IMG/VR virus record: IMGVR_UViG_3300013288_000004
Coordinates: 127,360-191,359 of that record
Reading direction: 5' to 3' (one strand)
DNA: 64,000 nucleotides
Source of the DNA: a virus
Lineage: Duplodnaviria > Heunggongvirae > Uroviricota > Caudoviricetes
The notes under the pieces are model-generated. The model saw nothing but the letters and a program-made list of their open reading frames with translations, did not search any database and had not been told where the DNA came from. The translations under genes were made by a program, and so were the position numbers. This document shows positions 3,426-61,793 of this stretch, piece after piece (positions within the stretch are counted from its first letter, which is position 1; each line of letters opens with the position of its first letter).

Positions 3426-3881
3426 TTATTGCTTTTCATTCAGATTGTCCTCAAGTTCTTTAATGCGTTTGCGAAGCTCGCCGTTAATGACACTCATATT
3501 CTTTATATTATCACGTTCAAAATCGACAGTTCGCAATGCTTTCTTTAAATTTACATTATTGAAATCACAGGCGTCAGCAATGTTTGAATCGCGATTGTCC
3601 CATTCTATAAATAATTCACGCTTTTTGAGCCTTCTAGCCGCAAGAGCATCCTCACTAATCTGCCACTTTCTTGCTACAAAGTCAATAGCTGCAAGTACAT
3701 CACCCATCTCTTCAGTCATTCTGGTTATCATGGAACCTTTACCATCCGGGTGATCATCACTATCATAATATGCGATTTTCTTTGCGCATATCTGAACTAG
3801 TTCACCGCATTCTTCCATCAATTTTGTTAAACCATTTGCAGACATCATAAAGCCAATATTCCTGTATAATTTGGAGCCCAC
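3426..3881 (-). CDS. MazG-like nucleotide pyrophosphohydrolase
   Basis: 151 aa; LMEECGELVQ ... EEMGDVLAAIDF blocks typical of the MazG/NTP-PPase all-alpha family. Confidence 0.5.
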   Translation of the reverse strand: MGSKLYRNIGFMMSANGLTKLMEECGELVQICAKKIAYYDSDDHPDGKGSMITRMTEEMGDVLAAIDFVARKWQISEDALAARRLKKRELFIEWDNRDSNIADACDFNNVNLKKALRTVDFERDNIKNMSVINGELRKRIKELEDNLNEKQ

Positions 3882-3946
3882 TACGGGACTTGAACCCGCG
3901 CTCGCCGCTATACGCTATCGCTGCTCTTTCTCTGAGCTAAATGGGC
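3872..3946 (-). tRNA. tRNA-like sequence, possible pseudo-tRNA
   Basis: Reverse complement GCCCATT-TA-GCTC-AGAGAAA-GAGC...GCGGG-TTCAAGT-CCCGT-AGTGGGC-T-CCA has good acceptor, D- and T-arms plus CCA. Anticodon region (contains CGCTATACGCTATCG direct repeat) has no canonical stem. Same family as 1599-1670. Confidence 0.35.
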
Positions 3947-3962
3947 TTAATTCTTTTTCATA

Positions 3963-4034
3963 CACCCTGTGACGGTATCGAACCGTCCTCTTCCAGATCA
4001 ATATAGATATTCTAGCCGCTATTACTAACAGGGT
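3963..4034 (-). tRNA. tRNA-like sequence (acceptor ACCCTGT/ACAGGGT, perfect T-arm GACGG-TTCGATA-CCGTC; D and anticodon arms non-canonical)
   Basis: Folded by eye on the minus strand; no CCA; low confidence. Confidence 0.3.
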
Positions 4035-4054
4035 GTACTATTACATATAAGTAA

Positions 4055-4195
4055 AACATATGCAGGTTGACATTGTGATAACGAACCCGGTCCATTCCTT
4101 AGTTCTCGATAGTTTGAGAGTTTCGAACCTCTCTGTCTAATCTCAGCCGGGTAGTATTCAACCGCCTTTAATGACACCGTTTCCGGTTACATATG
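4055..4195 (-). repeat. structured repeat element, copy 2
   Basis: Paralog of 1793-1933; hairpin GAGAG-GTTCGAAA-CTCTC here versus CAGA-GTTCGAAA-TCTG in copy 1 (covariation). Confidence 0.4.
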
Positions 4196-4600
4196 TTATT
4201 CTTGTTTCTCATTTGATGGCTCTATAGTATCTGGTAGCAGAGTCCTTGTCAACTGTTTGAGCAATTCTTCTCTGTCTAGTATAATTACATTATCACCTTC
4301 AACTGTCGCCCCACTATTGGAAGGATATGGAAAAATGTAATCTTCTTGTAACGATAGCGGATTGTAATAACCGTCTTGGTTATCAAGCTCTAGATCGTGG
4401 ATATCCTTCATCGCGAAATCCCTCTCTTCATTTTTATCAACGTCTAGAGCGTTTAAAAGAAATTGTGGCTCTTTGTGATATTCCGTTGATCCAAACCATA
4501 TGCAAATTGGGCGAATAGTTCTTACTGAACGTTCGCCCTTATAGTTTGTGTAATCAATCTTGAAATTGCAGTTATATGTCAAGTTTGCTATGTTATACAT
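4196..4600 (-). CDS. hypothetical protein
   Basis: 134-aa ORF. Confidence 0.45.
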   Translation of the reverse strand: MYNIANLTYNCNFKIDYTNYKGERSVRTIRPICIWFGSTEYHKEPQFLLNALDVDKNEERDFAMKDIHDLELDNQDGYYNPLSLQEDYIFPYPSNSGATVEGDNVIILDREELLKQLTRTLLPDTIEPSNEKQE

Positions 4601-5709: not shown

Positions 5710-6948
5710 TCAGATGTCCAAAGGCGTAACTTCGGGACAAGCCATCCCTAGTTGTCTCATTCCTGAGACATAAATATTTTTGGCAGCATTCCAATCTCTG
5801 TCCATTTTATGACCACAATCCGTACAGCAGAAGATTCGATCACTCAATTTCAAGTCTGATTTATAGCTACCACAACTAGAACATGATTTGGAAGTCGGTG
5901 CCCATTTATCTATTACAACTAAATTGTTGTTATAAATCAATGACTTGTATTTGAGTTGGCGTCGGGCTTCGCCCACGCCACCATCAATTCCTGACTTCCC
6001 AAACATTTTGCTCCAGCTTTTCAAATTCAAATCTTCTATAATTATCGTTTGGTTTTCGCGACAGATTTGAGTTGTAAATTTGTGTGTGAAATCGTGACGT
6101 AAGTCACTGATTTCTTTATGTATTTTTGCTACTTTACATCTTTGTTTCTTTTTGTTTTGACTTCCATCTTTTCTCTTTGAACAAATTCTCTGATACCTTT
6201 TCAGCTTTTGAAGCTTGTTTTTCAATGGTTTTGGTGCATCGAAAGATGCGCCATTTTGATCAACCGCGAAAGTTTTGATGCCAAAATCAATTGCTATGGT
6301 GTTATCTGATGTTCTAGCTTTACCATAATCATTCATCTCTACCGCAATTGATATAAACCATTTATCAGCTTTTCGACTGACCACAGCAGACATGATCTTA
6401 CCTTCAAATCTCAATGTCTCTTCCAATTTAATTTTTCCAATTAGTGGAAGTTTAATCATATTATCAGTTATGTGAAATTGATCGTTTGAGACATAAAATG
6501 AATCGCGTTTGTACTTTTTCTTAAACTGCGGATACGCGGTTCGTTTGTCGAAGAAACCTTTGAAAGCACTTTGTAAATTTGTAAATGGTTGTTGATTTGC
6601 ATCTTTTGGTGAATCGTATATCCATGGAAATTCCTGCTTTTTAATGGAATTGAATTGCTTTTTCAATTTTAATGCTGACGGTTTCTCGCCTGCCATATAT
6701 TGCTTATTCCATTCGGCCAAAGCCCAATTGTAAGTGAATCTGGCGCAGCCTGCGGCTCGCGCCAGCATCTGCTTCTGTTCTTTGTTGGGTTTTAACTGAA
6801 TTTTGTGGGCAAGATTCACGGCGATTTTATTCGCTTTTTCTCTTAACTTTGGCGTCTTTCGGCACCAATATAGTGCGTGATGCCGTTTGGTATGCACCTT
6901 CGATGTAGCCAAGGTGGAACCAATTGTAAGCTGTTCTGTAACATACAC
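5710..6948 (-). CDS. tnpB: IS607/IS605-family TnpB (OrfB) RNA-guided endonuclease
   Basis: 412 aa; N-terminal LKPNKEQKQMLARAAGCARFTYNWAL; RuvC-I IAIDFGIKTFA, RuvC-II IIIEDLNLKSW, zinc finger CSSCGS...CCTDCGH, RuvC-III DRDWNAAKNI. All catalytic blocks intact. Confidence 0.85.
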   Translation of the reverse strand: MYVTEQLTIGSTLATSKVHTKRHHALYWCRKTPKLREKANKIAVNLAHKIQLKPNKEQKQMLARAAGCARFTYNWALAEWNKQYMAGEKPSALKLKKQFNSIKKQEFPWIYDSPKDANQQPFTNLQSAFKGFFDKRTAYPQFKKKYKRDSFYVSNDQFHITDNMIKLPLIGKIKLEETLRFEGKIMSAVVSRKADKWFISIAVEMNDYGKARTSDNTIAIDFGIKTFAVDQNGASFDAPKPLKNKLQKLKRYQRICSKRKDGSQNKKKQRCKVAKIHKEISDLRHDFTHKFTTQICRENQTIIIEDLNLKSWSKMFGKSGIDGGVGEARRQLKYKSLIYNNNLVVIDKWAPTSKSCSSCGSYKSDLKLSDRIFCCTDCGHKMDRDWNAAKNIYVSGMRQLGMACPEVTPLDI

Positions 6949-13799: not shown

Positions 13800-13897
13800 C
13801 AGACCGGCAGGGACTTGAACCCCGATCATCAGTTTTCCTAAATATTCTTTTACAAAAACATTTAGGAGACTGGTATGCTGCCATTGCACCACCGATC
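13800..13897 (-). tRNA. tRNA-like sequence with ~30-nt palindromic insert (CCTAAAT...ATTTAGG); anticodon uncertain
   Basis: Acceptor GATCGGT/GCCGGTC (2 GU), T-arm CGGGG-TTCAAGT-CCCTG; length ~98 nt. Confidence 0.3.
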
Positions 13898-14004
13898 TAT
13901 ATTACTTTATTTATTCCATTCTACAGTAGCATTTTTTGCAAAACCTGTAAATGGCATCTTTATGCAAACGCTTTTAATTCACGTTCTCTAGCTATTCTTT
14001 CCAT

Positions 14005-19020: not shown

Positions 19021-19283
19021 TCTACAAAACCCGCAGCTTTAATTAGACGAGTAGCAATTTCTCTACCGTATTGCTCGGCTTTAGCTTCATATTCGACTTC
19101 ATCTTTTTTTGCATGCGGAACATTTAAGGCAACCTGAAGAGCACAATGGCGCGCCATCATATCTGGAAACTTATCCCAAGTAAATTTGTCGCCTCTCATT
19201 TTATCATTCAAAAAGGTAGCAAACATGCCAGAGACTGTCGCATAGCACTGATTTGCAATTCGTATTTGATGAAGTTCTTTCAT
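19017..19283 (-). CDS. hypothetical protein
   Basis: 88-aa ORF. Confidence 0.45.
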   Translation of the reverse strand: MKELHQIRIANQCYATVSGMFATFLNDKMRGDKFTWDKFPDMMARHCALQVALNVPHAKKDEVEYEAKAEQYGREIATRLIKAAGFVE

Positions 19284-19558
19284 AATCTTTCAACTTCACA
19301 AGTTTTTGGTTGTTTTGTTTCTGGATCAATGACTGGAGTTGTTGGACGAAGATATTCACCTAAGAAATAAACAACGCCATTAATACACCCTATCTTCAGT
19401 CCATTAGATGTTGTTATAACATTTGATCGACAATACTTGTCGTTACTATCTTTACATGATTGCTTTTCCTTAACAATGGGAATGATAATTGCGGCAATTA
19501 TAGCCATAATCACAATAACAATCATCAATTCAATTATTGTAAAACCTTTAGTTTTCAT
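19280..19558 (-). CDS. prepilin-type N-terminal cleavage/methylation domain protein (type IV pilin/pseudopilin-like)
   Basis: 92 aa; MKTKGFTIIELMIVIVIMAIIAAIIIP is the class III signal (G-F-T-x-x-E + hydrophobic helix) of type IV pilins. Confidence 0.55.
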   Translation of the reverse strand: MKTKGFTIIELMIVIVIMAIIAAIIIPIVKEKQSCKDSNDKYCRSNVITTSNGLKIGCINGVVYFLGEYLRPTTPVIDPETKQPKTCEVERL

Positions 19559-19618
19559 TTTCTTTCCTCTACTTTATATTCACATGTAATTGGAGTACCA
19601 TCATTATAGTTCCATAAA

Positions 19619-20848
19619 TCAATGCCAATAATGACATAACTTAGGTTTTGTGTCAAGTGAAATTTTCACTGACAAGGGCCAACTACATGCCTCTATCGGA
19701 TCAATTTTTACATCTCCGACTGCTTTTCTCATAATATTATATGCGCCATTGACATCTGCATTTATTTCTAAATCAAGACATTTGTCTTTATAAATTCCTC
19801 TGGTTTTTCTATATCCAGAAAATTTCATGTCATCCGTCTTCTCTCCATATGTCGGAATCATATCATTACTCAAACATGATGCCTTTGATGTATAGCTCTC
19901 TTCCTGACAAATGACATTAATTCCTCTTGATTCGGCTTTATATGTCAACATTTGTTTCAATTTATTGAATGGCACTGACACAAAATTTTGATTATTTTTC
20001 TTTCCGATGTTTATCTCTTGTTTCCAACCTTTATTTTCACCGATTATTAAGGTGTTTATTTGGTTGAAATCTAATTGATTAATAAGCCACGTACTTGCTT
20101 TATGTAAATAATCACGAATTTTGTCATTTCTTTTTCTAGAAATGGCGTTGATTCTATTACTTGTCTTTCTTTTGTCTCCTAATTTTGATTGTAGTTCTGC
20201 TTTTCTTTTATTATAATATTGGTTTATAGCTTTCAATGGTTTTCCATTTATTAAAAATGGTTTCATGACATTTGACGCTGTTGCTACTAAATTACTTAAA
20301 CCGATATCAACGGACAAATAACGACTATTGTCACTTCTTTTGTCTTCTATATCTGTCAAATATATCACTTCTATATCAAAATGATTGCTTCTCGGAACAA
20401 CTCTAACCTGTTGTATATCTGTTTTTTCTGTCTTTATAAAGATGTCATAACCAGATAATTTTACATATCCAGGTTTAACGAAAGATAATGCCTGATTAGT
20501 GAAAATTGTCACATATTTACCTGATTTGTCTAGGTAATTTGGTATACGTACCTTGTCATTTTTCTTTGCTTTCAACAAAGCAAAGAATGATCTAAAATTT
20601 TGATCAACCAATTTTAAGGTCTGTTGTGACACTTTTCTAGGTAATTGCTGGTAATCTATATTAGTTTTTGCGAAATCACCAGCTAATTTTGAATAGCCGA
20701 TGTATGTTTTTGTGGAGAAAAAATGCTGACGAATGGCATACAAAGATGCATTATACAAGTTTTTGGACTTGTGAGTCAGATCACACAAGTCACTAAAATA
20801 ATGACTTGTGCGACATATGGCATGCTTTTCTACACGTCTAGCTTTCAT
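19619..20848 (-). CDS. tnpB: IS607-family TnpB (OrfB) RNA-guided endonuclease
   Basis: 409 aa; RuvC-I LSVDIGLSNL, RuvC-II LIIGENKGW, RuvC-III INADVNGAYNI; zinc-finger cysteines reduced (only 2 Cys); 4-nt overlap with tnpA. Confidence 0.85.
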   Translation of the reverse strand: MKARRVEKHAICRTSHYFSDLCDLTHKSKNLYNASLYAIRQHFFSTKTYIGYSKLAGDFAKTNIDYQQLPRKVSQQTLKLVDQNFRSFFALLKAKKNDKVRIPNYLDKSGKYVTIFTNQALSFVKPGYVKLSGYDIFIKTEKTDIQQVRVVPRSNHFDIEVIYLTDIEDKRSDNSRYLSVDIGLSNLVATASNVMKPFLINGKPLKAINQYYNKRKAELQSKLGDKRKTSNRINAISRKRNDKIRDYLHKASTWLINQLDFNQINTLIIGENKGWKQEINIGKKNNQNFVSVPFNKLKQMLTYKAESRGINVICQEESYTSKASCLSNDMIPTYGEKTDDMKFSGYRKTRGIYKDKCLDLEINADVNGAYNIMRKAVGDVKIDPIEACSWPLSVKISLDTKPKLCHYWH

Positions 20849-21411
20849 GCAGCTTCCAAGGATTGGATCAGCTTTTCGGTCTGTCGCTTGGACCTACGCA
20901 ATCCATACAACCGGGCTGTAAAAGATGTGACAAGTGACACGAAATCTTGCATTAAATCTTCTTTTTCGTCCTGAACCGGATTGATGACCTCAATCTTTCT
21001 GTCAGAAACAGCCAGCAATTTCTCGATGTAATTGGTGCCGAAACGGGCTAATCGATCTTTGTGTTCCACAACAATCAAGTCAATGTCTTTATCTATTAAA
21101 AGCGACTCAAGTTTTGGTCTGTTGTCATTTAAACCAGAACCAATTTCTGTGACAATCTTCTCTATTTTGTATCCTTTGGCATTGCAATAAGACACAACTC
21201 GATCTTTTTGTCTATCAAGATTATCTTTGTTTTCTGTACTCGAAACTCGGGCATAAACAGCGACTTTTGTCTCTTTATTGACATCAAGTAAGATGCGAAC
21301 CCTGCCAGTTTGTGTATGTTCTATTTGTAGTTCGTTATTTTTGATCCAGCGCCATACTGTGCGCTGGCTCACACCTTTCATTTTTGCATATTCAGATATT
21401 TTTATTCTCAT
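20845..21411 (-). CDS. tnpA: IS607-family TnpA serine recombinase (MerR-like HTH + resolvase catalytic domain)
   Basis: 188 aa; N-terminal IKISEYAKMKGVSQRTVWRWIKNN HTH; catalytic YARVSS...DRQ...VVEHKDRLAR serine recombinase blocks. Confidence 0.85.
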   Translation of the reverse strand: MRIKISEYAKMKGVSQRTVWRWIKNNELQIEHTQTGRVRILLDVNKETKVAVYARVSSTENKDNLDRQKDRVVSYCNAKGYKIEKIVTEIGSGLNDNRPKLESLLIDKDIDLIVVEHKDRLARFGTNYIEKLLAVSDRKIEVINPVQDEKEDLMQDFVSLVTSFTARLYGLRRSKRQTEKLIQSLEAA

Positions 21412-21488
21412 TTGTTTTTCTCTTCTACAAATCTATTTATAGTAAACGCAGACAAGTGTACCAAAAATATCCTGTTATGTCTTCTAAT

Positions 21489-21794
21489 TCAATAAAGATT
21501 CATAATACCAGCAGATTTCAGCAAGTCAACGCCTTCTTTTTCTGATAGTGGCGGCAACCCACCAATAGACTCAAATTCGGAATTATCATTTTTAATCGCT
21601 TGAATTTGTTTACGAATATATCTCATAAACAATATAGCTTTATCTTCATCCAAGAAAGTCCCGTCACCAGTATCACTAATAGGCACTGGAAACATGAAGC
21701 CACATTCAGTTTTATAAAACAATTCACCATGCTTATAGTAACAAAACTTCACTCTCTTATTATCTTTAACTATGTCTTTAATATTGTAATTCAT
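21489..21794 (-). CDS. hypothetical protein
   Basis: 101-aa ORF. Confidence 0.45.
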   Translation of the reverse strand: MNYNIKDIVKDNKRVKFCYYKHGELFYKTECGFMFPVPISDTGDGTFLDEDKAILFMRYIRKQIQAIKNDNSEFESIGGLPPLSEKEGVDLLKSAGIMNLY

Positions 21795-22423
21795 GAATCT
21801 ATCCCTCTGGTTATTTCTAATCCACTATTTTCTAGTAGTCTTTTTGCTCTACCATAATTGTCACCCTTTGGTGACATGTTTAAATTTAACAAACCATGGC
21901 GTATACTGCCAGCGTTTACTATGCTATTAATAAGTTCGTTATCACTTATTTTCGCCTTTCTTGTGTTTCTTCCTCGCCATGTCGGAGTTAATGAATGACA
22001 ATTAGGACATAATCCCTCTAGATTATCTCTAGAATTATTCTTATTATTTCCGTCAATATGGTCAATCTCTAATGAGATTGGAGATCCCATCCACTCAAAA
22101 ATACCACAAGAATTACATTTATTTTCTTGTTCTTTTATGACCCTAACCCGCTTTACATCAAAACATACAGAGTCAAATGGTTTTTCATTAATTTTCTTTT
22201 CGAGAGTTTCTTTTATTTTCTTAATTCTAGTTGGTGTATGTATTTTTGATATTCTCTCTACCCTTTCCAAATCTGATAAATTTCTCCAAAATATCTTGTT
22301 CTGGTCTGCTTTTTTAATTTTGGCTTCATCAGTAAAGACCCTAGTATTTCTACATGCTAGAGAACAATAATTTATTAACCCCTTGGATGGTATAAAATCT
22401 ACTTCACATTTTTTACATTTCAT
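21791..22423 (-). CDS. HNH homing endonuclease
   Basis: 210 aa; N-terminal CKKCEVDF...CSLACRN zinc ribbon; HNH core LEIDHIDGNNKNNSRDNLEGLCPNCHSLT. Confidence 0.8.
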   Translation of the reverse strand: MKCKKCEVDFIPSKGLINYCSLACRNTRVFTDEAKIKKADQNKIFWRNLSDLERVERISKIHTPTRIKKIKETLEKKINEKPFDSVCFDVKRVRVIKEQENKCNSCGIFEWMGSPISLEIDHIDGNNKNNSRDNLEGLCPNCHSLTPTWRGRNTRKAKISDNELINSIVNAGSIRHGLLNLNMSPKGDNYGRAKRLLENSGLEITRGIDS

Positions 22424-23243: not shown

Positions 23244-23680
23244 TTTGGATTTCCCATATATGTTTTAAGTAGTTTAAGAGTTCTTGTGACAAAGTTCATC
23301 GACTTAGGGCAACCATCATACCAATCCTTAACCACATCTGTCAAACCATCAATTAGAATTTTTTCTTTTGAAACGCCAGATTCTGACTCTATCTTCATAT
23401 TTTGTTGTAAAAGTTTTAGCAATGCTATGTCAGCCTCGTATGTTTCTTTAAGAGCCTGCTTCAATTCTTCGCCAATATCTTTGGCTATGATCAAATCCAT
23501 CTTCATCTCAAGCTTGCGTAAAATTGAATCACTTATTATCAAATCATGTAAATTATCCTCGGCATAACCAGAAGGATAAAGATCAGAACGATATGATGGG
23601 GGGACTTGATCGTCAGGGATTTCTATAATTATGCGCATGGTGGGTTTTTGGTTATGGAGGTTGTAAAGGCATGTTCGCAC
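23237..23680 (-). CDS. hypothetical protein
   Basis: 147-aa ORF. Confidence 0.45.
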   Translation of the reverse strand: MRTCLYNLHNQKPTMRIIIEIPDDQVPPSYRSDLYPSGYAEDNLHDLIISDSILRKLEMKMDLIIAKDIGEELKQALKETYEADIALLKLLQQNMKIESESGVSKEKILIDGLTDVVKDWYDGCPKSMNFVTRTLKLLKTYMGNPKC

Positions 23681-24469
23681 AAAAAAGGAATAATGTCAAC
23701 GAACTCGTATAAATACTTAAAAAGGAGAGTTCGAATGCCAAAACCAAGAACGTCAGTAATATGGTTAATACCTAGAGAAGATTTACAAAACATGATAGAC
23801 ACAAGTAGTTCTATCGTAGAAGTTTTAGAGAAGTTAGGATTTAATGGTTACAACGGGAACCATAGGACACTGACACGGAGGATCAGTGTGGAGTCAATTA
23901 ATACCGAACAAATGAAATTAAACTATAAAGAATATAGAAAAGCACGCATAGATTGTACTCATAATATACACAATGTTTTTGTTACTGGTTCTAAGACGAG
24001 TAGAAAAACAATTAAAAAGATACTAACAGAAAATAATCTATTAGCTTACAAATGTTCTGAATGTGATAATAATGGAAGTCATAATGGCAAACCATTAATC
24101 TTGCAATTAGAGCACATTAATGGGATTAATGATGACAATAGATTAGAAAATTTATGTTTTCTTTGTCCTAACTGTCACAGCCAAACTACTACATTTTCTG
24201 GTCGAAATTCCAAACGTCCGAAGAATGACAAGCGGAAGAGCTATGAATCAGCAGAGAAAAAGGCCATCAGGACTCAAAATATGAGAAAGTTTAACGTCAC
24301 TAAAGAGGAATTGACAGAATTGATCATAAACCATTCAATGGTGTCTTTGGGTGAGAAGTTTGGTGTCAGTGACACGGCAATTAAGAAAAGATGTAAGCGG
24401 TTGGGGATAGATTTAGATTTGAGAAAATATAAAAAATTGGAGCGGGCGATGGGAATCGAACCCACCTAA
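23606..24469 (+). CDS. HNH homing endonuclease (3' end of ORF runs into tRNA-Gly; true stop may be earlier by frameshift or read-through)
   Basis: 287 aa; LEHINGINDDNRLENLCFLCPNCHSQT HNH core; C-terminal region with HTH-like VSLGEKFGVSDTAIKKRCKRLG. Confidence 0.7.
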   Translation: MIVRDFYNYAHGGFLVMEVVKACSHKKGIMSTNSYKYLKRRVRMPKPRTSVIWLIPREDLQNMIDTSSSIVEVLEKLGFNGYNGNHRTLTRRISVESINTEQMKLNYKEYRKARIDCTHNIHNVFVTGSKTSRKTIKKILTENNLLAYKCSECDNNGSHNGKPLILQLEHINGINDDNRLENLCFLCPNCHSQTTTFSGRNSKRPKNDKRKSYESAEKKAIRTQNMRKFNVTKEELTELIINHSMVSLGEKFGVSDTAIKKRCKRLGIDLDLRKYKKLERAMGIEPT

Positions 24470-37815: not shown

Positions 37816-38841
37816 ATGCATTGGGTACTACAGGAAAATTTGTTTAACGAACAAGGATTTAGGGACGCTCTGGACGTTTTTGAAAGGTTTAAGATACCAT
37901 ATTCTTTACATAAGGTTGTGCCGTTTGTTGGTGAGCTAGAGCCTGACATTAGTCCAGATGACAATGTGATCTGCATGGGTTCTTACTCTATGCGCCACAT
38001 TGCTAAGAAGAAGGGTTGGTATCCCGGTGTGTTCGATCTAGAACCAGTTAATTTTAATGAACAAATGAAGCATTGGGGAAAGCACATGCTCAATGCTGAT
38101 GCTGTTGTGTCAAGATTTGCTGATGCTAAGATTGTAACAGGAAAAGCATTCCTACGTCCAATTGAAGATTCCAAAGTATTTGCTGGAAAAGTATTTACAG
38201 ATCAAGAACTTACAGAATGGCAGCATAGTATCATTACTATGGGAGATGACTATGGTTCTTCTATGAATGGTGACACACTGATACAAGTATGCCCGGTCAA
38301 GGAAATCTACGCAGAGTATAGATACTGGGTTGTGGACGATAAAATCGTAACCAAGTCCATGTATAAGCGTGGTGGGACGGTTCATTACTCCAGTGACGTT
38401 GATCATCGATTTGATAAGTTTGTGTCATCACTAACTTCTGGACCGTTTTCAGTAGATTATTGGCGACCGCATGATGCATACGTGATAGACGTTTGTGACA
38501 CACCAGATGGTATCAAGGTGGTCGAATTGAATACACTCACAAGCGCGGGGTTCTATGCGGCCAATATGACAGACCTAATCATGGCACTAGAAGATAAGTT
38601 TAGTAGAAAAGAACCTAGAAAAGATATTGGCGGTATTATTACTTATAAAGTGCAACGCAGTATGGATAAAGGATTCTTTTATTGTCCATATAACCCATTT
38701 GTGCCAGTTGTAGAAAAGTTACCAGAACCTGAGCCTCCAACTCAAGAGATGATAACTATGTGGATTGATGGTGTTAAAAACAATGATCCACAGAAAGATG
38801 CTTATATAGAATTGTTGAAAAAACTCCCACCATTCAGTTAA
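37816..38841 (+). CDS. ATP-grasp domain protein
   Basis: 341 aa; FLRPIEDSKVFAGKVF, EYRYWVVDDKIV, VIDVCDTPDGIKVVELNTLTSAGFY blocks typical of ATP-grasp ligases. Confidence 0.6.
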   Translation: MHWVLQENLFNEQGFRDALDVFERFKIPYSLHKVVPFVGELEPDISPDDNVICMGSYSMRHIAKKKGWYPGVFDLEPVNFNEQMKHWGKHMLNADAVVSRFADAKIVTGKAFLRPIEDSKVFAGKVFTDQELTEWQHSIITMGDDYGSSMNGDTLIQVCPVKEIYAEYRYWVVDDKIVTKSMYKRGGTVHYSSDVDHRFDKFVSSLTSGPFSVDYWRPHDAYVIDVCDTPDGIKVVELNTLTSAGFYAANMTDLIMALEDKFSRKEPRKDIGGIITYKVQRSMDKGFFYCPYNPFVPVVEKLPEPEPPTQEMITMWIDGVKNNDPQKDAYIELLKKLPPFS

Positions 38842-44342: not shown

Positions 44343-44368
44343 AAAAGGGCCAATTTGGCCCTTTTTCT
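44343..44368. terminator. bidirectional rho-independent terminator
   Basis: AAAAAGGGCCAA-TT-TGGCCCTTTTT between convergent genes. Confidence 0.6.
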
Positions 44369-45611
44369 ATTCATAATTTCTAAGTAGAAACTTGTTGCAT
44401 GTTTTTGGAAAACAAGTATCATTATCCTCTGTTAAGAACCAAAACCATTTTTCTGGAATCTTTGGGGTAACTGTTGTTCCCAAACCATCAGTAATAATAA
44501 AAACACCTTCTGGATAAGAATCAAAATCTTTCAGAACTGATTCTTCAATAATTCTAAAACAAGTACCACCTCCCATTGGCAACCTATTTTTATTCAAATC
44601 TATTTCGTGCACATAAGTTGAAAAACAAAAAAACCTAACATCAAATTTATCCAGCGGGACACTTTTTGCGGCATCGTAGAAACGTTGGGCGTAACTATGG
44701 CAAGACCCGGAAGTATCTAGATAAAATGCTATACTAATTCTTTCTTTCTTCTTTTTATCCATATCCGCTATTGTTGGTAAAAAGAAATTACTATCCAATG
44801 TTACAAATCTTCTATTCTTTCTAGCCCACTGATAGTATTCATTTTCCGTAACCTTTAATTTAGATTTCACCCATTTATGTATAACAGTTTCCCACTTCTT
44901 CTTTTTAACTACTTTCTTATTTTCTAACTCCTTTACAACAAATACATAAGCAGACCCTGCTTGTTTTTTGTTAGAATTGTTTACGGAATCTAAAGCCTCT
45001 TTTAGTTGCTCTAATTCTGATTCATCCATCCCGTCGATCATTTCTTGAATTACTTTATCTGATACAATAAACCAGTCGGAATGATCGTCAAGCATATTAC
45101 CGCCAGAACGTCCTTGCGGTCCATTCCCTTGTTCATCTGTTTCAGCATCTTTTACTAACAAATTATAATAATATTCCATAGTCATTCCATATGGTACATT
45201 TTTGTCAGGAAAAGCATTATCAAGCCACCAACCTCCGATATCCAATTCTTCCTTGATAAATTTATAAAATCTAACAAGAGTTTCGTTCACACATATATCA
45301 GCAGCTATATTCATCAATTCTTTGTTGAATTCTGGTAAACTTAGCATTCCATATAATCTTGGTAGATGCGAGAGCATCACATGCATACATTCATGGCTAA
45401 TCAAGAATAATTTTTGCAATTTATTCATCTGACTCCAAAAAGTTGGATTAATTGTCAATAAAATGTGTTCCCGAGATTCATCCGTTGCAGACACTCCAAG
45501 TGTTGGTACACTATCACTAAATTGTACGTAGCTCATGTTAAGGAATGTATAGTACATATTCCCATATGGTTGTAGACCGCGTAATAATTCTAATTTCTCT
45601 TCCAATTCCAT
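44367..45611 (-). CDS. VWA-domain protein with N-terminal HExxH metallopeptidase-like motif (CobT-like / DUF2201-like partner of the AAA ATPase)
   Basis: 414 aa; HECMHVMLSH zincin-like motif; C-terminal AFYLDTSGSC (VWA MIDAS DxSxS) ... ITDGLGT. Confidence 0.65.
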   Translation of the reverse strand: MELEEKLELLRGLQPYGNMYYTFLNMSYVQFSDSVPTLGVSATDESREHILLTINPTFWSQMNKLQKLFLISHECMHVMLSHLPRLYGMLSLPEFNKELMNIAADICVNETLVRFYKFIKEELDIGGWWLDNAFPDKNVPYGMTMEYYYNLLVKDAETDEQGNGPQGRSGGNMLDDHSDWFIVSDKVIQEMIDGMDESELEQLKEALDSVNNSNKKQAGSAYVFVVKELENKKVVKKKKWETVIHKWVKSKLKVTENEYYQWARKNRRFVTLDSNFFLPTIADMDKKKKERISIAFYLDTSGSCHSYAQRFYDAAKSVPLDKFDVRFFCFSTYVHEIDLNKNRLPMGGGTCFRIIEESVLKDFDSYPEGVFIITDGLGTTVTPKIPEKWFWFLTEDNDTCFPKTCNKFLLRNYE

Positions 45612-45672: not shown

Positions 45673-48303
45673 ATGGCTACAATAGAAGATAAATTAAAAT
45701 TTGCTGCGAAGAATGAACTAAATGTCATGCTGATCGGGCATGCTGGAGTTGGAAAAACTTCAATAGTTAAAAACATATTCGAAGAACTTGGATTAAAGTA
45801 TCTGTACTACTCAGCTTCTACCATGGACCCATGGGTAGATTTTGTTGGAGTCCCGCACGAAGTAACTGGAGAAGACGGTGTAAAATATCTCGACCTAGTT
45901 CGTCCTAAAGCATTCGCATATGATGATGTTGAAGCTATCTTTTTGGATGAATATAATAGATGCATCAGTGGTGATACCAAAATTCTGTTAGCCGATGGTA
46001 CATCAGAAGCTGTTAAGGATTTAGTCGGTAGAGAACATTTTTATGTGTATTCTTTTGACACCAAAAACAAAAGTATAGAAATTGCAAAAGCACATTCTGC
46101 TAGAATTACCGTCAGAAACGAAAACTTACTAAAAATAACATTAGATAATGGCGCATCATTCAAATGTACAAAAGATCACCCTATATTAAGAATAACTGGA
46201 GAATTTGACTTAGCTGAGAATTTTTCAGTCAACGATTCTCTAATGCCGTGCTATCGTTTCTGGAAACAAACCGGATATGAATATATAATGCAACCACAAG
46301 GAAAGAAATGGGAATTAACGTATCTTTTGGCTGATTTATACAACTTAAGAAATAATATTTATAAAATTGATGATGGTGAGCATCGTCATCATGTAGATTT
46401 TGACAAACATAATAATTCACCAGAAAATATATTGAGATTAACAGAATCTGCGCACATGTCTCTCCATGCCAATCATGATGAGAAATCTATTATGGGTGGT
46501 AGAATGGCGCATAAAATTCACCCGGACTTGTATGCAAGGACAATAGGCACCGAGGAAAGTAGGAAAAAAATGAAAGAACGGTCGGCATTGGTAAGAAAAA
46601 CTTGTCCAAAATATAAAGCGAAGCGCTCTATCGCAAGCAAAAAAATGTATACTCAAGAGATGAGGGATTATCGTGCGGAAGTAACCAAAAAACAATGGCA
46701 AACTGAACAATTTAAGAATATAGACAGAAAGGCTTCCTTAGAAAGAAATCATCTATCTAGAGTATTAAACTTTCTCACGGATAATAATATAAACATCGGC
46801 GAATTGACCGAAGAAAACTATAAAAATGCTTACTTGGAAAGAAGTAGAAATAAAAGACGACTGCCAATGAAACATTCTACCATAATAACAAAATTTTCAG
46901 ATTTTGAAAATTTCAAAAAAATACTATTGGAATTTCAATCAGCTAAAAAAAATGGTAATCATAAAATAATAAAAATCGAAGAAGTTGATGCTGAAGATAC
47001 TTACGATATTACGGTTGATGAATTTGAGAATTTTGCCCTAGAGTGTGGAATTTTTGTTCATAATTCACCAATCAAGGTAAGGAACGCTGTTATGGAATTG
47101 ATACAATTCAAATCCATCAATGGTAAAAAATTCAATAATCTAAAACTGGTTTGGGCCGCAATAAATCCTAGTGATGAGGATGATACAGGAAAAACATATG
47201 ATGTTGAAGCTCTTGACCCGGCACAATTAGATCGTTTCCATTTTCACATTGAAATGCCTTATGCTTTAAATAAAAAATATTTCAAATCAAAATACCCAGA
47301 GTATGTAGATGCTGTTCTTGAATGGTGGAATGCTCTACCAAAACCACAAAAGAATTTAGTATCTCCTAGACGTGTTGACATGGCTTTAAGCGTTCTCAGA
47401 AATGGCGGTGATCTAAATTGGATATTACCAAATAATGTAAACTGTAAAGAATTGGTAGACATTCTAGATAATGGAACATTTTCCGCTAGAGTGGGCAATT
47501 GTTTTGAAGAAAAGAATGAAGAAAAAACTAAGAATTTATTGACTGACAATGACAAAACTCTTAGCAAATACATGAAGTGTATATTCCAAAAGAATGAATA
47601 TATTGAATATTTCATGCCATTCATCACTGATGAACAAATGATGAGCATGATAACCAACAACAATAAACCCGTCATAGATTATGTGTCACGAGCAGATATT
47701 GCCGTAACTCGTGAAAAATTGTTAAGTAGCATAGTAAAAGCTAAATCAGTGAAAAAGGATTTGTTGGACAAATTCAACAATGTATTAAAAGTCATTAGAC
47801 AATCAAAACAAAAAATAGATGTTACGTCTAATGTTGCGCATTTACCCTCCGAATCTTTGTGTATAGGTAAAAATGAAAATAGTCATATTGATTTAGAATC
47901 AAATCGTGACTGGCTAGATTTTTATCATAGGATTACATCAACTAGATATGTTCCAAATACATACGACAGGAAAAAAGTCTTTTTGGCGCTTACTGATATG
48001 GGTGGTGCTATCTATGATTATAAAATGCCAGAAAAAACAGAATTAATCGGTAATATATTTGATTGTGCTGTTTCTATAATAAAAAGTACTTATAATATTG
48101 TGCATGGCAAAGAAAACTTAATATATTTAATTAAAATTATGAATTCGTGTGATGTAATTTTATCAGAACACAATATAGATATATTCGCCTTAATGAAAAA
48201 GAAAACAGATAGAATAGACAAAGCGTTAAAAGTAATAGAACAAGAACAATCGTGCTATGATATGTTAAATTCAAAATTCAAGGACTATCATGATAATTTA
48301 TAA
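45673..48303 (+). CDS. MoxR/CobS-like AAA+ ATPase (AAA_5) interrupted by an HNH-containing intein
   Basis: 876 aa; Walker A LIGHAGVGKTS, Walker B IFLDEYNR immediately followed by Cys (intein start CISGDTKILLADG); extein resumes ...VHN|SPIKVRNA; sensor region AQLDRF. Confidence 0.8.
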   Translation: MATIEDKLKFAAKNELNVMLIGHAGVGKTSIVKNIFEELGLKYLYYSASTMDPWVDFVGVPHEVTGEDGVKYLDLVRPKAFAYDDVEAIFLDEYNRCISGDTKILLADGTSEAVKDLVGREHFYVYSFDTKNKSIEIAKAHSARITVRNENLLKITLDNGASFKCTKDHPILRITGEFDLAENFSVNDSLMPCYRFWKQTGYEYIMQPQGKKWELTYLLADLYNLRNNIYKIDDGEHRHHVDFDKHNNSPENILRLTESAHMSLHANHDEKSIMGGRMAHKIHPDLYARTIGTEESRKKMKERSALVRKTCPKYKAKRSIASKKMYTQEMRDYRAEVTKKQWQTEQFKNIDRKASLERNHLSRVLNFLTDNNINIGELTEENYKNAYLERSRNKRRLPMKHSTIITKFSDFENFKKILLEFQSAKKNGNHKIIKIEEVDAEDTYDITVDEFENFALECGIFVHNSPIKVRNAVMELIQFKSINGKKFNNLKLVWAAINPSDEDDTGKTYDVEALDPAQLDRFHFHIEMPYALNKKYFKSKYPEYVDAVLEWWNALPKPQKNLVSPRRVDMALSVLRNGGDLNWILPNNVNCKELVDILDNGTFSARVGNCFEEKNEEKTKNLLTDNDKTLSKYMKCIFQKNEYIEYFMPFITDEQMMSMITNNNKPVIDYVSRADIAVTREKLLSSIVKAKSVKKDLLDKFNNVLKVIRQSKQKIDVTSNVAHLPSESLCIGKNENSHIDLESNRDWLDFYHRITSTRYVPNTYDRKKVFLALTDMGGAIYDYKMPEKTELIGNIFDCAVSIIKSTYNIVHGKENLIYLIKIMNSCDVILSEHNIDIFALMKKKTDRIDKALKVIEQEQSCYDMLNSKFKDYHDNL
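45961..47064 (+). other. intein (368 aa) with HNH homing-endonuclease domain
   Basis: N-terminal Cys + block A ISGDTKILLADG; internal HRHHVDFDKHNNSPENILRLTESAHMSLH (HNH); C-terminal block G FVHN followed by Ser. Confidence 0.75.
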
Positions 48304-48789: not shown

Positions 48790-49326
48790 ATGAATAAATC
48801 GGTATCAGATTTTGACAAAGATGTCTATAATAAAATCAGAAATAATATAGATCATTTTCTTAGTGGACAAGCTAAAACCCACAATAATGGATCTTTACAA
48901 TTATTGGACATTGCCCCGCAAATTCATGCTGGCGCAAAAAAATATTTCACCAAGTGTGATATAGACACTGCTGACATAGATCCAAAATCTAATGCTAACT
49001 ACATAGTGGACATATGTGAAAATAACTCCCACATTATCTCCAATAATGTATTTGATATAATCGTATGCACTGAAGTATTAGAGCATACTCTGAATCCATT
49101 CTCTGCTGTTTCCGAATTACATAGAATGCTTAAAATAGGTGGAAGACTTTTATTATCAACTCCGTTTGACTTCAGAATACATGGCCCTCTACCAGATTGC
49201 TGGAGGTTCACCGAGCATGGATTGCGTGCTTTGTTAAAAGATTTCAAATCTGTGGAAATTACACCACTAGAAAATGAAAATAGATTCTTGATGCCATATC
49301 ACTATACTACGGTAGCAATAAAGTGA
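48790..49326 (+). CDS. class I SAM-dependent methyltransferase
   Basis: 178 aa; LLDIAP (motif I), DIDP (acidic loop), IIVCTEVLEH, LKIGGRLLLS. Confidence 0.7.
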   Translation: MNKSVSDFDKDVYNKIRNNIDHFLSGQAKTHNNGSLQLLDIAPQIHAGAKKYFTKCDIDTADIDPKSNANYIVDICENNSHIISNNVFDIIVCTEVLEHTLNPFSAVSELHRMLKIGGRLLLSTPFDFRIHGPLPDCWRFTEHGLRALLKDFKSVEITPLENENRFLMPYHYTTVAIK

Positions 49327-50585
49327 AGAATGTATTGGTTTTTCCCTGCGGTTCTGAAATAGGACTGGAAATAAATCGTGCTTTGAAATATTCCAAACAT
49401 TTTAAAGTGTTTGGAGCATCAAGCGTAAATGATCATGGTAAATTCGAATTTGATAATTATGCAGATGGTGTTCCTAACGTTTCCGATGATAATTTCATTG
49501 ATCATATCAATTATCTAGTAAAACAATATAACATAGACTTTATATTTCCTGCTCATGACTCCGTAGTGGTTAAAATGATAGAAGAACAACATCGTTTATC
49601 TGCAACAGTCATAACCTCTGATAAAGAAACATCACAAATATGCAGGTCAAAATCAAGAACATATGATGTTTTTAAGGGATTATTACCAGTACCAAAAACA
49701 TATGATGTTGATGGTGGAATACGATTTCCTACTTTCTTAAAACCGGATGTAGGACAAGGTGCTAAAGGTACATACAAAGTAGCTAACTACAAAGATATAA
49801 AATTTTACGTAGAAAAAGACCCATCATTATTAATTCTAGAATATCTACCCGGAAGAGAATACACGGTTGATTGTTTTACTAATCGACACGGACAATTGAT
49901 ATTCTCTGAAGGTAGGGAACGCGGCAGAATAAACAACGGTATTAGTGTAAATTCCAAGAAAACTATAAATCATAAATTCACAGAACTGGCAGAAATAATA
50001 AATTCGAGATTAAAATTTCGTGGGGCATGGTTTTACCAACTGAAAGAACGGTCTGATGGAGAATTGGTTCTAATGGAAATTTCTCCAAGAATAGCCGGAA
50101 CAATGGAACTATTCAGAAACTATGGAATAAATTTTGCGCAATTAAGTTTGTTTGATAGAATGGGAATTGACGTGTCCATAATCAACAACAATATAGATTT
50201 AGAAATAGACAGGTCATTATCCGCCAAGTATAAAATGACTTATGAATATAACCACGTGTATATTGATTTAGATGATACTATCTTAATAAATGATAAAATA
50301 AATTCAAACGTCATGAAATTTCTATATGAGTGTATTAACAATCATAAGAAGATTCATTTATTGACAAAACATAGGCATGACGTGGAACATACATTATGTA
50401 ATAATTATATTGACATCAATATGTTCACTACTATTAACCAAATAAGTCAATTCGACCATAAACCCGATTTTATAATTCATAAAGATTCGATTTTTATAGA
50501 CGATTCTTTTGCGGAAAGAAAGAGAGTGTCAGATAATGTGGGGATTCCCGTATTTGACGTTGATGCTATTGACTGCTTGATGTAA
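49323..50585 (+). CDS. ATP-grasp enzyme fused to C-terminal HAD-like phosphatase domain
   Basis: 420 aa; ATP-grasp blocks FLKPDVGQGAKG, EYLPGREYTVDCF, LMEISPRIAG; C-terminal YIDLDDTIL (HAD motif I DxDxT) and HLLTKHRHD. Confidence 0.6.
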   Translation: MKNVLVFPCGSEIGLEINRALKYSKHFKVFGASSVNDHGKFEFDNYADGVPNVSDDNFIDHINYLVKQYNIDFIFPAHDSVVVKMIEEQHRLSATVITSDKETSQICRSKSRTYDVFKGLLPVPKTYDVDGGIRFPTFLKPDVGQGAKGTYKVANYKDIKFYVEKDPSLLILEYLPGREYTVDCFTNRHGQLIFSEGRERGRINNGISVNSKKTINHKFTELAEIINSRLKFRGAWFYQLKERSDGELVLMEISPRIAGTMELFRNYGINFAQLSLFDRMGIDVSIINNNIDLEIDRSLSAKYKMTYEYNHVYIDLDDTILINDKINSNVMKFLYECINNHKKIHLLTKHRHDVEHTLCNNYIDINMFTTINQISQFDHKPDFIIHKDSIFIDDSFAERKRVSDNVGIPVFDVDAIDCLM

Positions 50586-61337: not shown

Positions 61338-61418
61338 GTAGTTTTTAATTCCATATTAGCAAACGTATTTATCTTAGTGTTTTTATTTGTAAACCTAAAA
61401 ACCGGTGGGCATAAACAA

Positions 61419-61446
61419 AAACACCAGCGAAAGCTGGTGTTTTGTA
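61419..61446. terminator. rho-independent terminator hairpin
   Basis: AACACCAGC-GAAA-GCTGGTGTTTTG. Confidence 0.55.
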
Positions 61447-61647
61447 ATCTTATTTGGTAACAAGGTAGATTAGACCCCGTGATAGTTCATGCCGCTTGCG
61501 CGTACTCGACATCAAAAAATTCATCGTTAGATGCATTTATAGTTTCATGCTGATTAGGTCAGTCATCTATCCGGTTGCCACATACACACTCCACTATGAG
61601 TCGAAGCCAATTATACCCCCGTCAAAAGATTACAGACCATAATCTTT

Positions 61648-61720
61648 TGGTGGAGGTAAGCGGAGTCGAACCGCTGTGTTCATAACTTTGTTGTAATGGG
61701 ATTACAACCATTTATTCTTC
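61648..61720 (-). tRNA. tRNA-like 3' portion (T-arm AGCGG-TTCGACT-CCGCT, acceptor strand TACCTCC, encoded ACCA); 5' half not identifiable
   Basis: Direct inspection; adjacent 7-bp hairpin TTGTAAT-CCC-ATTACAA. Confidence 0.3.
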
Positions 61721-61793
61721 TTTCGAAGAATTTTTAAAAATACCTTTCATAATTCTACCAATCAAATAACCTTCCGCTATATATTTATCTAAA

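Follow-up and report, generated by a model that had tools for sequence, protein, structure and literature searches.

Insertion sequences (ISs) of the IS607 family, such as IS607 of Helicobacter pylori and IS1535 of Mycobacterium, are about 1.9 kb long and encode a serine recombinase transposase, TnpA, with an N-terminal helix-turn-helix (HTH), followed by a tnpB gene which overlaps tnpA at ATGA; they have no terminal inverted repeats and make no target duplication, or one of 2 bp. A preference for insertion at GG has been reported for IS607. TnpB proteins typically, although not universally, have a C4 zinc finger between RuvC-II and RuvC-III. In the established layout of omegaRNAs, the RNAs which guide TnpB, the guide is the flank directly beyond the right end of the transposon. 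Type IV pilins and pseudopilins start with a class III signal (G(-1), F/M(+1), E(+5)) and a hydrophobic alpha-helix, to which a globular, beta-rich head is joined; a prepilin peptidase cleaves and methylates them, and a type IV filament machine assembles them. The TnpB of the IS607-type element ISFba1 is guided by a RAGATH-18-derived RNA (PMC11061315), TnpB is described as processing its own transcript into omegaRNA (PMC10278001), and TnpB branches which are zinc-finger-less and catalytically rearranged, some of them virus-enriched, were reported by Altae-Tran et al. in 2023 (PMC10691335). Here, we analysed a stretch of 64,000 nucleotides (nt; hereafter the window) from the IMG/VR virus record IMGVR_UViG_3300013288_000004, positions 127,360 to 191,359, most likely part of a large phage genome, in which a tnpA-tnpB pair lies next to a prepilin-like gene. 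We consider it likely that this locus holds an autonomous IS607-family IS with TnpB and omegaRNA, standing at a deletion junction beside a resident phage pilin gene.

The initial annotation had called a complete IS607-like tnpA-tnpB element, and profile searches bore this out. TnpA (188 amino acids (aa); 21411..20845, minus strand) matched the NCBIfam IS607 transposase equivalog NF033518 with 183.5 bits (cutoff 110; positions 2-187 of 187), and TnpB (409 aa; 20848..19619, minus strand), the putative RNA-guided nuclease, matched NCBIfam guided_TnpB with 167 bits (cutoff 100), as well as Pfam OrfB_IS605 and Cas12f1-like_TNB. The proposed architecture of TnpA, a MerR-type HTH plus a resolvase domain, was also recovered, with a Pfam Resolvase match (E = 1.2e-18), a YARVSS serine motif, and weak, sub-threshold matches to HTH_17, MerR and HTH_23 at residues 3-40. 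The tnpA stop and the tnpB start share 4 nt, ATGA (20848..20845), on the same strand. Recombinase type, gene overlap, size and the absence of terminal repeats and target duplication are thus all as in IS607 and IS1535. What differs from the family is the host, a large phage, together with the lineage-specific end sequences and a TnpB of another branch: with the NCBIfam 'exception' model IS607_TnpB it scored 18 bits against a cutoff of 350, which places it in a branch other than that of the curated IS607 TnpB proteins.

Compared with the TnpB of ISDra2 and ISFba1, the phage protein has the same RuvC-type D..E..D core and a similar size (~390-410 aa), and D181 and D365 were invariant in an alignment with 13 homologues. 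It differs from them in having no CxxC...CxxC, and in that the column of the canonical RuvC-II Glu (E271 here) holds E, Q, N, K, H or Y in members of its clade; in contrast, E316 and E317 are nearly invariant. TnpB had first been described as having a reduced zinc finger with two Cys only. The count of two Cys was correct, but the reduced finger was not: the CxxC...CxxC of a second TnpB in the window aligned to SCLSND...KCLDLE, and the closest homologues do not conserve the two Cys, having mostly Phe or other residues there. Judged from these alignments, the TnpB clade is entirely without a zinc finger. The loss of the finger, a non-canonical RuvC-II in most clade members, the viral host and the serine recombinase partner are all shared with the zinc-finger-less branches (PMC10691335). 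Different from those branches (RIIr-4, RIIIr-4 and others), the RuvC-III Asp of the phage TnpB is canonical. A PDB sequence search with TnpB returned only a weak match to a designed nuclease.

The boundaries of the IS were set by comparison with copies in related phages, whose loci are given here as L numbers. When the locus was compared by blastn with the closest other full copy, L071 (= L080), which lies at a different locus between a transfer-messenger RNA (tmRNA) gene and a ligase cluster on another phage contig, a single alignment with 81% identity was obtained, covering exactly 21508..19605 of the minus strand. Partial copies were retrieved with a 17-mer from the tnpB 3' end. In the related phage, four loci with different contexts were thus seen to be occupied, one by a full copy, one by a mini copy and two by solo right ends. 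The mini copy L076:4695-4841 (= L103) is a non-autonomous derivative of 147 bp, in which 32 nt of the left end are joined to the last ~115 nt including the omegaRNA scaffold, and its insertion site is the D-arm of a phage gene for tRNA-Phe(GAA). When L076:4695-4841 was removed in silico, a tRNA-Phe(GAA) was restored which ARAGORN recognised, and this empty site proves both IS ends, with a 1-nt G ambiguity left. Five independent contexts of the right end diverged directly after GGAACTAT(A/G), and all three contexts of the left end started at GTATT. The IS is thus 1,904 bp long, from the left end at 21508 to the right end at 19605, and its end sequences, GTATTWTRAATCTTTA ... GGAACTATA, are specific to this lineage.

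These boundaries replace the earlier extent of 21440..19280, since the left end lies 68 nt further out, in the end of an apparent upstream open reading frame (ORF), and the pilin gene lies outside the element. The suggestion that alignment with the second TnpB locus (5710..6948) would define the ends failed, as the two elements have no DNA similarity. The left end, aligned with L071 and L076, spans 21412..21508 (minus strand) and is non-coding for the IS. From the set boundaries, precise excision in silico would leave ...AAATCTGCTG|ATGATGGTACTCC..., and the predicted circle junction reads ...GGAACTATA|GTATTATGAAT..., or in its longer form ...TTATGGAACTATA|GTATTATGAATC.... Terminal inverted repeats were searched for in the IS and not found, and no convincing subterminal repeats were seen either; the window copy, L071 and L076 had no direct repeat in common in their flanks. 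The left junctions were G|G, C|G and G|G (n = 3), and the G which two of these three have before the left end recalls the GG preference of IS607; the corresponding left flanks were TGCTG, CCCAC and AGTAG, and the right flanks (n = 5) started with AT, TA, GC, AA and TT.

A boundary model with a GG crossover (21507..19598) was also considered; the five contexts of the right end, the three of the left end and the restored tRNA-Phe gene led us to drop it. Two contigs which stop ~140 nt upstream of the pilin gene, L062 and L063, were examined as candidate empty sites and rejected, as both start inside tnpB. The first 41 nt of L063 (L063:1-41; ERZ761600 NODE_7331) are an untrimmed Illumina Nextera adaptor (TCGTCGGCAGCGTCAGATGTGTATAAGAGACAG) in the deposited assembly. 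At the left boundary, a sigma-70-like motif (21502-21529, minus strand; TTGACT-16-TATTAT with TG) has its -35 in the phage flank and its -10 in the IS left end; a consensus match only, it would be a tnpA promoter spanning the junction.

At the other end of the element, only 14 nt separate the tnpB stop from the right end, and the TnpB ORF, ~14 codons longer than in homologues of 390-395 aa, runs into terminal RNA hairpins. The presumed omegaRNA scaffold (19605..19730, minus strand) comprises 126 nt with five helices, overlaps the last 37 tnpB codons and ends at the IS right end. The same arrangement is known from ISDra2 and ISFba1, where a structured RNA overlaps the tnpB 3' end, stops at the right end and takes its expected guide from the flank. 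Segment 19730..19605 is 90% identical to L071, compared with 78% for the remaining tnpB, and it is the part which was retained in the solo and mini copies. RNAalifold predicted four to five helices in it. A covariance model built from five copies matched at the tnpB 3' end in four distant relatives (L073 with 58.5 bits; L007, L008 and L010 with 25-32 bits), whose TnpB proteins are 42-56% identical. In a nine-sequence alignment, which was fitted to the model and so favours structure, standard pairs filled 95.5% of the cells, compared with 75.5% after shuffling and 32-45% with slid partners, and the covariation score was 0.547, compared with 0.204 and <=0.12, respectively; two-sided changes occurred at 28 of 37 scaffold pairs. 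The imperfect hairpin which had been noticed in the omegaRNA region is helix 4 of this scaffold (19651..19674, minus strand; nine pairs, one bulge), and it is conserved, with compensatory changes in relatives at eight of its nine pairs. No Rfam family, RAGATH-18 included, matched the IS or any of ten related loci, so that the phage scaffold, different from that of ISFba1, falls outside all Rfam families.

The ends of IS607-family elements carry subterminal TnpA-binding repeats, and the 3'-terminal hairpins could therefore work at the DNA level, as such repeats or as a terminator, instead of as a guide-RNA scaffold. CACTTG/CAAGTG indeed has one occurrence in the left end and two in the right. 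However, compensatory changes with 95.5% of cells paired over 126 nt, found with TnpB proteins of 42-56% identity, fit a folded RNA better, the position and layout are as in known omegaRNAs, and a T-run is absent after the hairpins. We regard the purely DNA-level explanation as improbable, while noting that DNA and RNA roles are not exclusive.

With the right-end boundary fixed, the established TnpB/omegaRNA layout puts the guide at 19604..~19585. The predicted guide is 5'-AUGAUGGUACUCCAAUUACA, the first 20 nt beyond the right end (19585..19604, minus strand), and the corresponding target would read ATGATGGTACTCCAATTACA (19604..19585). The guide sequence is unique within the window and had no match in IMG/VR. 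In the mechanism which we favour, TnpA, as a serine recombinase with an N-terminal HTH, would move the element without inverted repeats or target duplication, and the zinc-finger-less TnpB would bind an omegaRNA consisting of the 126-nt scaffold (19730..19605) and a guide read from the adjacent phage DNA. The nuclease might then cut IS-free copies of the site in sibling or co-infecting phage genomes, after which recombination would restore or spread the IS.

The two solo right ends, L084:3450-3586 (= L077) and L075:5404-5640 (= L109), are 86-91% identical to the window scaffold and consist of the omegaRNA scaffold, lacking tnpA and a complete tnpB. A GC-rich hairpin with a T-run (AAAAGGCGGCCTAGGCCGCCTTTTCT) comes ~20 nt after the scaffold of L075, an arrangement which resembles a scaffold-guide-terminator unit. 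Such solo copies could be stand-alone guide genes or simply relics.

We next turn to the flanks of the IS. On the right side, the IS borders a remnant of a 74-aa membrane-protein gene, its last 16 codons (..DGTPITCEYKVEERK*; 19555..19604, minus strand), identified by DNA and protein similarity to L067:2231-2455 and L115:3058-3282, in which the 74-aa gene ends with ..NGKPITCEYKVKKIK*. The right junction aligned cleanly with L067. On the left side lies a truncated 101-aa phage gene of the phrog_20427 family (21794..21489, minus strand), which is native only in 21794..21509, that is, up to codon 95 and the first base of codon 96. Its last five codons and stop (IMNLY*) come from the first 20 nt of the IS left end, GTATTATGAATCTTTATTGA, where homologues go on after ...SAG with ...GILNEDWQLHESFGGVGIITE and similar; the conserved domain (residues 5-73 compared with phrog_20427) is intact. 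In relatives, the distance from the 101-like gene to the pilin gene is 1.3 kb in L066, 2.4 kb in L064 and 3.3 kb in L115, with two, six and eight genes in between, respectively. Compared with these relatives, the block between the two genes is missing where the IS stands, which shows that the IS is located at a deletion junction; the two flanks of the window copy are contiguous in no relative.

We propose that the target of the insertion was the 3' part of the 74-aa gene which directly precedes the pilin gene, and that the DNA between the left end and codon 95 of the 101-aa gene would have been lost in a second step, possibly via a left-end-like 11-nt sequence; the left end GTATTATGAAT resembles an 11-nt native stretch, GGTATTCTTAAT, in the 101-like gene of L115. 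Alternatively, the IS could have inserted simply, with no IS-associated deletion, into a pre-existing in-frame fusion of the 101-aa N-terminal part and the 74-aa C-terminal tail. Precise excision in silico does produce an open frame, ...LLKSADDGTPITCEYKVEERK*, with a stop that shares nucleotides with the pilin ATG, and the earlier boundary variant 21507..19598 was likewise in frame. In-frame excision is, however, expected in one of three cases by chance, the IS would need to hit the fusion joint exactly, none of the 13 aligned homologues has such a tail, and the two genes lie 1.3-3.3 kb apart in L064, L066 and L115. A fusion gene as the target is therefore given little credence. Two alternative in-frame reconstructions of the uninterrupted 101-aa gene were dropped on the boundary evidence described above.

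The resident prepilin-like gene encodes a mini-pilin of 92 aa (19558..19280, minus strand) starting with MKTKGFTIIELMIV. As annotated at first, the tnpB stop and its ATG are separated by exactly 60 nt (19618..19559). The class III signal that had been proposed for the protein was supported by Pfam N_methyl (30.5 bits, cutoff 21.2) and by TIGR02532 (29.1 bits, cutoff 16.3), and the signal itself, MKTKG|FTIIE with G(-1), F(+1) and E(+5), was invariant in 11 homologues, as were the four Cys of the protein. With a dN/dS (ratio of nonsynonymous to synonymous substitution rates) of 0.15-0.25, the gene is under purifying selection. Homologues with 70-84% aa identity were found in six other phage lineages, in the same syntenic place and all free of the IS, and almost all of these lineages have a different gene directly before it. 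The mini-pilin gene is a conserved resident phage gene outside the IS. Its position 46 nt from the right end and its co-orientation with the IS would fit cargo of the element, or a gene brought in by it, in a composite or passenger arrangement. This explanation was refuted by the boundary and synteny data and retains almost no probability: the right end was set at 19605 by five contexts, six relatives hold the pilin gene in place without any IS, and the other IS copies have unrelated right flanks.

The initial annotation had further proposed that the IS right end overlaps the promoter of the pilin gene. The gene is indeed within the influence of the IS, whose right end lies 46 nt from the pilin start, but the promoter overlap was not borne out. 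In the IS-free relatives, the stop of an upstream gene on the same strand overlaps the pilin ATG as ATGA (L066, L067, L069 and L070), abuts it as TAAATG (L068), or precedes it by 15 nt (L064) or 12 nt (L115). The overlapping or abutting layout in six IS-free relatives is operon-like and points to operon expression instead of a private promoter; rather than landing in a promoter, the IS has replaced the upstream genes. The pilin gene retains its Shine-Dalgarno sequence, GAGGA, and the native DNA for 46 nt before its start; the upstream ORF which overlaps its start is now the 16-codon remnant, whose TGA overlaps the pilin ATG (ATGA) and which holds the GAGGA. The IS and the pilin gene are co-oriented, and the minus strand of the IS showed no terminator-like site; transcripts which run on into the gene from phage promoters further upstream and from tnpA-tnpB would therefore be the likeliest source of pilin mRNA. 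Pilin transcription could also start from the IS right end, where an outward sigma-70-like motif (TTGACA-17-CATTAT with TG; 19628..19656, minus strand), a consensus match only, lies within RNA helices 4-5. This motif is no evidence of function, because the region has 27 sigma-70-like sites compared with 18.2 +/- 4.0 in shuffles. By analogy with the processing of TnpB transcripts, omegaRNA maturation could sever the pilin message near the guide.

TnpA is 95% and TnpB 79% identical in aa to the L071/L080 copy, and at a synonymous divergence (dS) of ~1.05, the dN/dS was ~0.03 for tnpA and ~0.12 for tnpB. Such low ratios indicate that both genes are maintained by purifying selection. The element is probably active on this sequence evidence, and its TnpB and omegaRNA would be functional as well. 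The opposite possibility is that the element is a fixed, immobile relic, with tnpA and tnpB carried along or co-opted and with no transposition or homing in the phage. Each contig of the phage has the IS at the same site, including all contigs which encode the identical pilin protein and reach far enough upstream; in addition, the non-contiguous flanks mean that no empty homing site is known, and the guide has no match elsewhere. In contrast, the ORFs are intact and under strong purifying selection relative to a copy at a different locus in another phage, the related phage bears mini and solo derivatives in further contexts, and both ends and the RNA scaffold are conserved. The presence of the same ends in different genomic contexts of the related phage amounts to mobility of the family, and we judge an immobile relic to be rather unlikely.

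Several points nevertheless weigh against an active element at a deletion junction beside a pilin gene, besides the fitted covariation alignment. The 64-kb window contains a single IS copy, and this copy is known at one site only. The catalytic arrangement of TnpB appears uncertain, with the canonical RuvC-II Glu position varying across the clade, and a target-adjacent motif is not deducible, because the three left flanks have no common motif. We infer the order of insertion before deletion from the sequence of the flanks, and the likeness of GTATTATGAAT to GGTATTCTTAAT in L115 could be due to chance. As for the pilin, its fold is unconfirmed: the AlphaFold2 model, a helix at residues 8-31 plus five strands, has a mean predicted local distance difference test score (pLDDT) of 57.7, and Foldseek with this model gave no match in PDB at E <= 0.001.

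Like type IV pilins, pseudopilins, ComGC-like minor pilins and phrog_3433, the mini-pilin has a class III signal of the form KG|FTxIE, a predicted hydrophobic N-terminal helix and a small C-terminal domain with Cys, and its length is near that of ComGC and other minimal pilins. The pilin models matched only the N-terminal 25-40 residues, and the type-specific equivalog models (PilA, GspG/H, ComGC and others) reached ~30 bits at the N-terminus only, compared with cutoffs of 75-400. Different from type IV pilins, the mini-pilin has the C-terminal domain of an uncharacterised family, whose members are mini-pilins of 70-95 aa from metagenomes. In a profile search of 1.8 billion representatives, the mini-pilin family formed a single 50% cluster, and a looser set of 70-95-aa metagenomic mini-pilins shared a C-terminal C-x-G-x-x-Y(F/L)...P-x-x-C. 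A phage-encoded pilin-like protein had been considered unusual in itself. Six PHROG families matched the mini-pilin N-terminus, one of which, phrog_3433, is annotated 'pilin'; such genes are therefore uncommon but not unprecedented in phages. No hit was obtained by tblastn of the pilin against cultured phages or by a peptide scan of IMG/VR, a motif scan of the window found no second prepilin motif of note, and no pilus assembly genes were seen near the mini-pilin gene, although they were not searched for systematically.

Most plausibly, the mini-pilin would be processed by the prepilin peptidase of the host and then enter a type IV filament machine there, with interference, exclusion or takeover as the outcome; a specific role as receptor decoy or in pilus interference is speculation. 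A bolder reading combines these ideas, in that the IS and its mini and solo derivatives would be inter-phage weapons. If this were true, TnpB would cut the accessory block upstream of the pilin gene in IS-less co-infecting relatives, excluding them or converting the marker, the solo scaffold-plus-guide copies would be stand-alone guide genes served in trans, and the mini-pilin would enter the host type IV pilus machine for takeover or superinfection exclusion. In this connection, the mini-pilin C-terminal RPTxPVIDPETKxP also occurs in a TsaP-like, secretin-associated LysM protein of Rhodocyclaceae-type Betaproteobacteria, and the beta-type tmRNA of the window would point to such bacteria as host. 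We regard the weapon scenario as a long shot.

The LysM protein was met in a GTDB genome scan for pilin relatives, which found no pilin and only this TsaP-like protein with a 14-residue motif. It has 358 aa (L116:3611-4687; L117 ~3851-4381), comes from Ca. Desulfobacillus denitrificans and a Rhodocyclaceae metagenome-assembled genome, and is encoded between def and dprA, where Pseudomonas has its TsaP gene (PA0020). Both it and the mini-pilin C-terminus have RPT(K/T)PVIDPETK(E/Q)P and a preceding IG..G.VY strand; the two matched with BLASTP E = 6e-8 and an hhalign probability of 90%, values for matches pre-selected by motif. This possible link to TsaP-like proteins is a lead and not a finding. 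The 74-aa membrane protein of L067 and L115 ends with ...GKPITCEYKV.., similar to the pilin C-terminus ...TKQPKTCEVERL, and the profile search also matched 73-80-aa proteins via the C-terminal part alone. The 74-aa gene and the pilin gene may be distant paralogues.

As an element, the IS is ordinary: it adds one more case to known kinds, brings no new mechanism and leaves current understanding unchanged. Its value lies in a phage IS607 lineage which is precisely bounded with empty-site proof, in an omegaRNA scaffold outside Rfam whose strong covariation could seed a new RNA family, and in a TnpB which is a candidate compact zinc-finger-less editor. The locus is also a clear case in which an IS marks where a hypervariable phage region has lost a block of accessory genes, and it adds a conserved phage and metagenomic family of 70-95-aa mini-pilins under purifying selection, with pilus interference, exclusion and secretion as candidate roles.

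With regard to the phage, megablast of 7 kb against INPHARED gave zero matches, so no close relative among cultured phages was found, and a distant blastn search of cultured phages gave scattered TnpB/HNH similarity only. Relatives of the window phage are present in the IMG/VR catalogue, and contigs which encode the identical pilin protein are up to 306 kb long. The window encodes HNH endonucleases, an intein-containing ATPase and PHROG-family proteins, along with seven tRNA genes called by ARAGORN and two more called by Rfam. The latter, tRNA-like genes at 3875-3946 and 13800-13898 (both minus strand), were missed by ARAGORN; the second is 99 nt long and may hold an insertion or intron.

Every gene at ~15.5-23.7 kb lies on the minus strand, and in reading order the first of those around the IS is a 210-aa HNH endonuclease gene (22423..21791). 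This gene and a further HNH endonuclease gene at 23606-24469 (plus strand) flank a tRNA-Lys gene and further tRNA genes a short way upstream of the IS, and L066 is without the 21.8-23.2 kb segment. The region just upstream of the IS is a hotspot of mobile elements and gene-content variation. The second TnpB (412 aa; 5710..6948, minus strand) has an HTH_OrfB_IS605 domain, an intact CxxC...CxxC and no adjoining tnpA, and its locus is an IS1341-like solo element.

A permuted two-piece tmRNA was found at 61417-61752 (minus strand), with an Rfam beta_tmRNA score of 103 bits compared with 84, and a tmRNA_permuted score of 98.5 bits; its tag according to ARAGORN is ASNDEFFDVEYAQAA. The tmRNA of the related phage (L071:4786-5148, minus strand) lies ~190 nt from that phage's IS copy. 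The beta type of the tmRNA hints at a betaproteobacterial host, yet the GC content of the window is merely 35%. Further along the window, an 876-aa AAA ATPase gene (45673-48303, plus strand) is split by an intein (Pfam Intein_splicing, residues 104-464) and adjoins a DUF2201 metallopeptidase-like gene (44367-45611), and two ATP-grasp family genes, of R2K type and Ter-operon type, are located at 37816-38841 and 49323-50585 (both plus strand).

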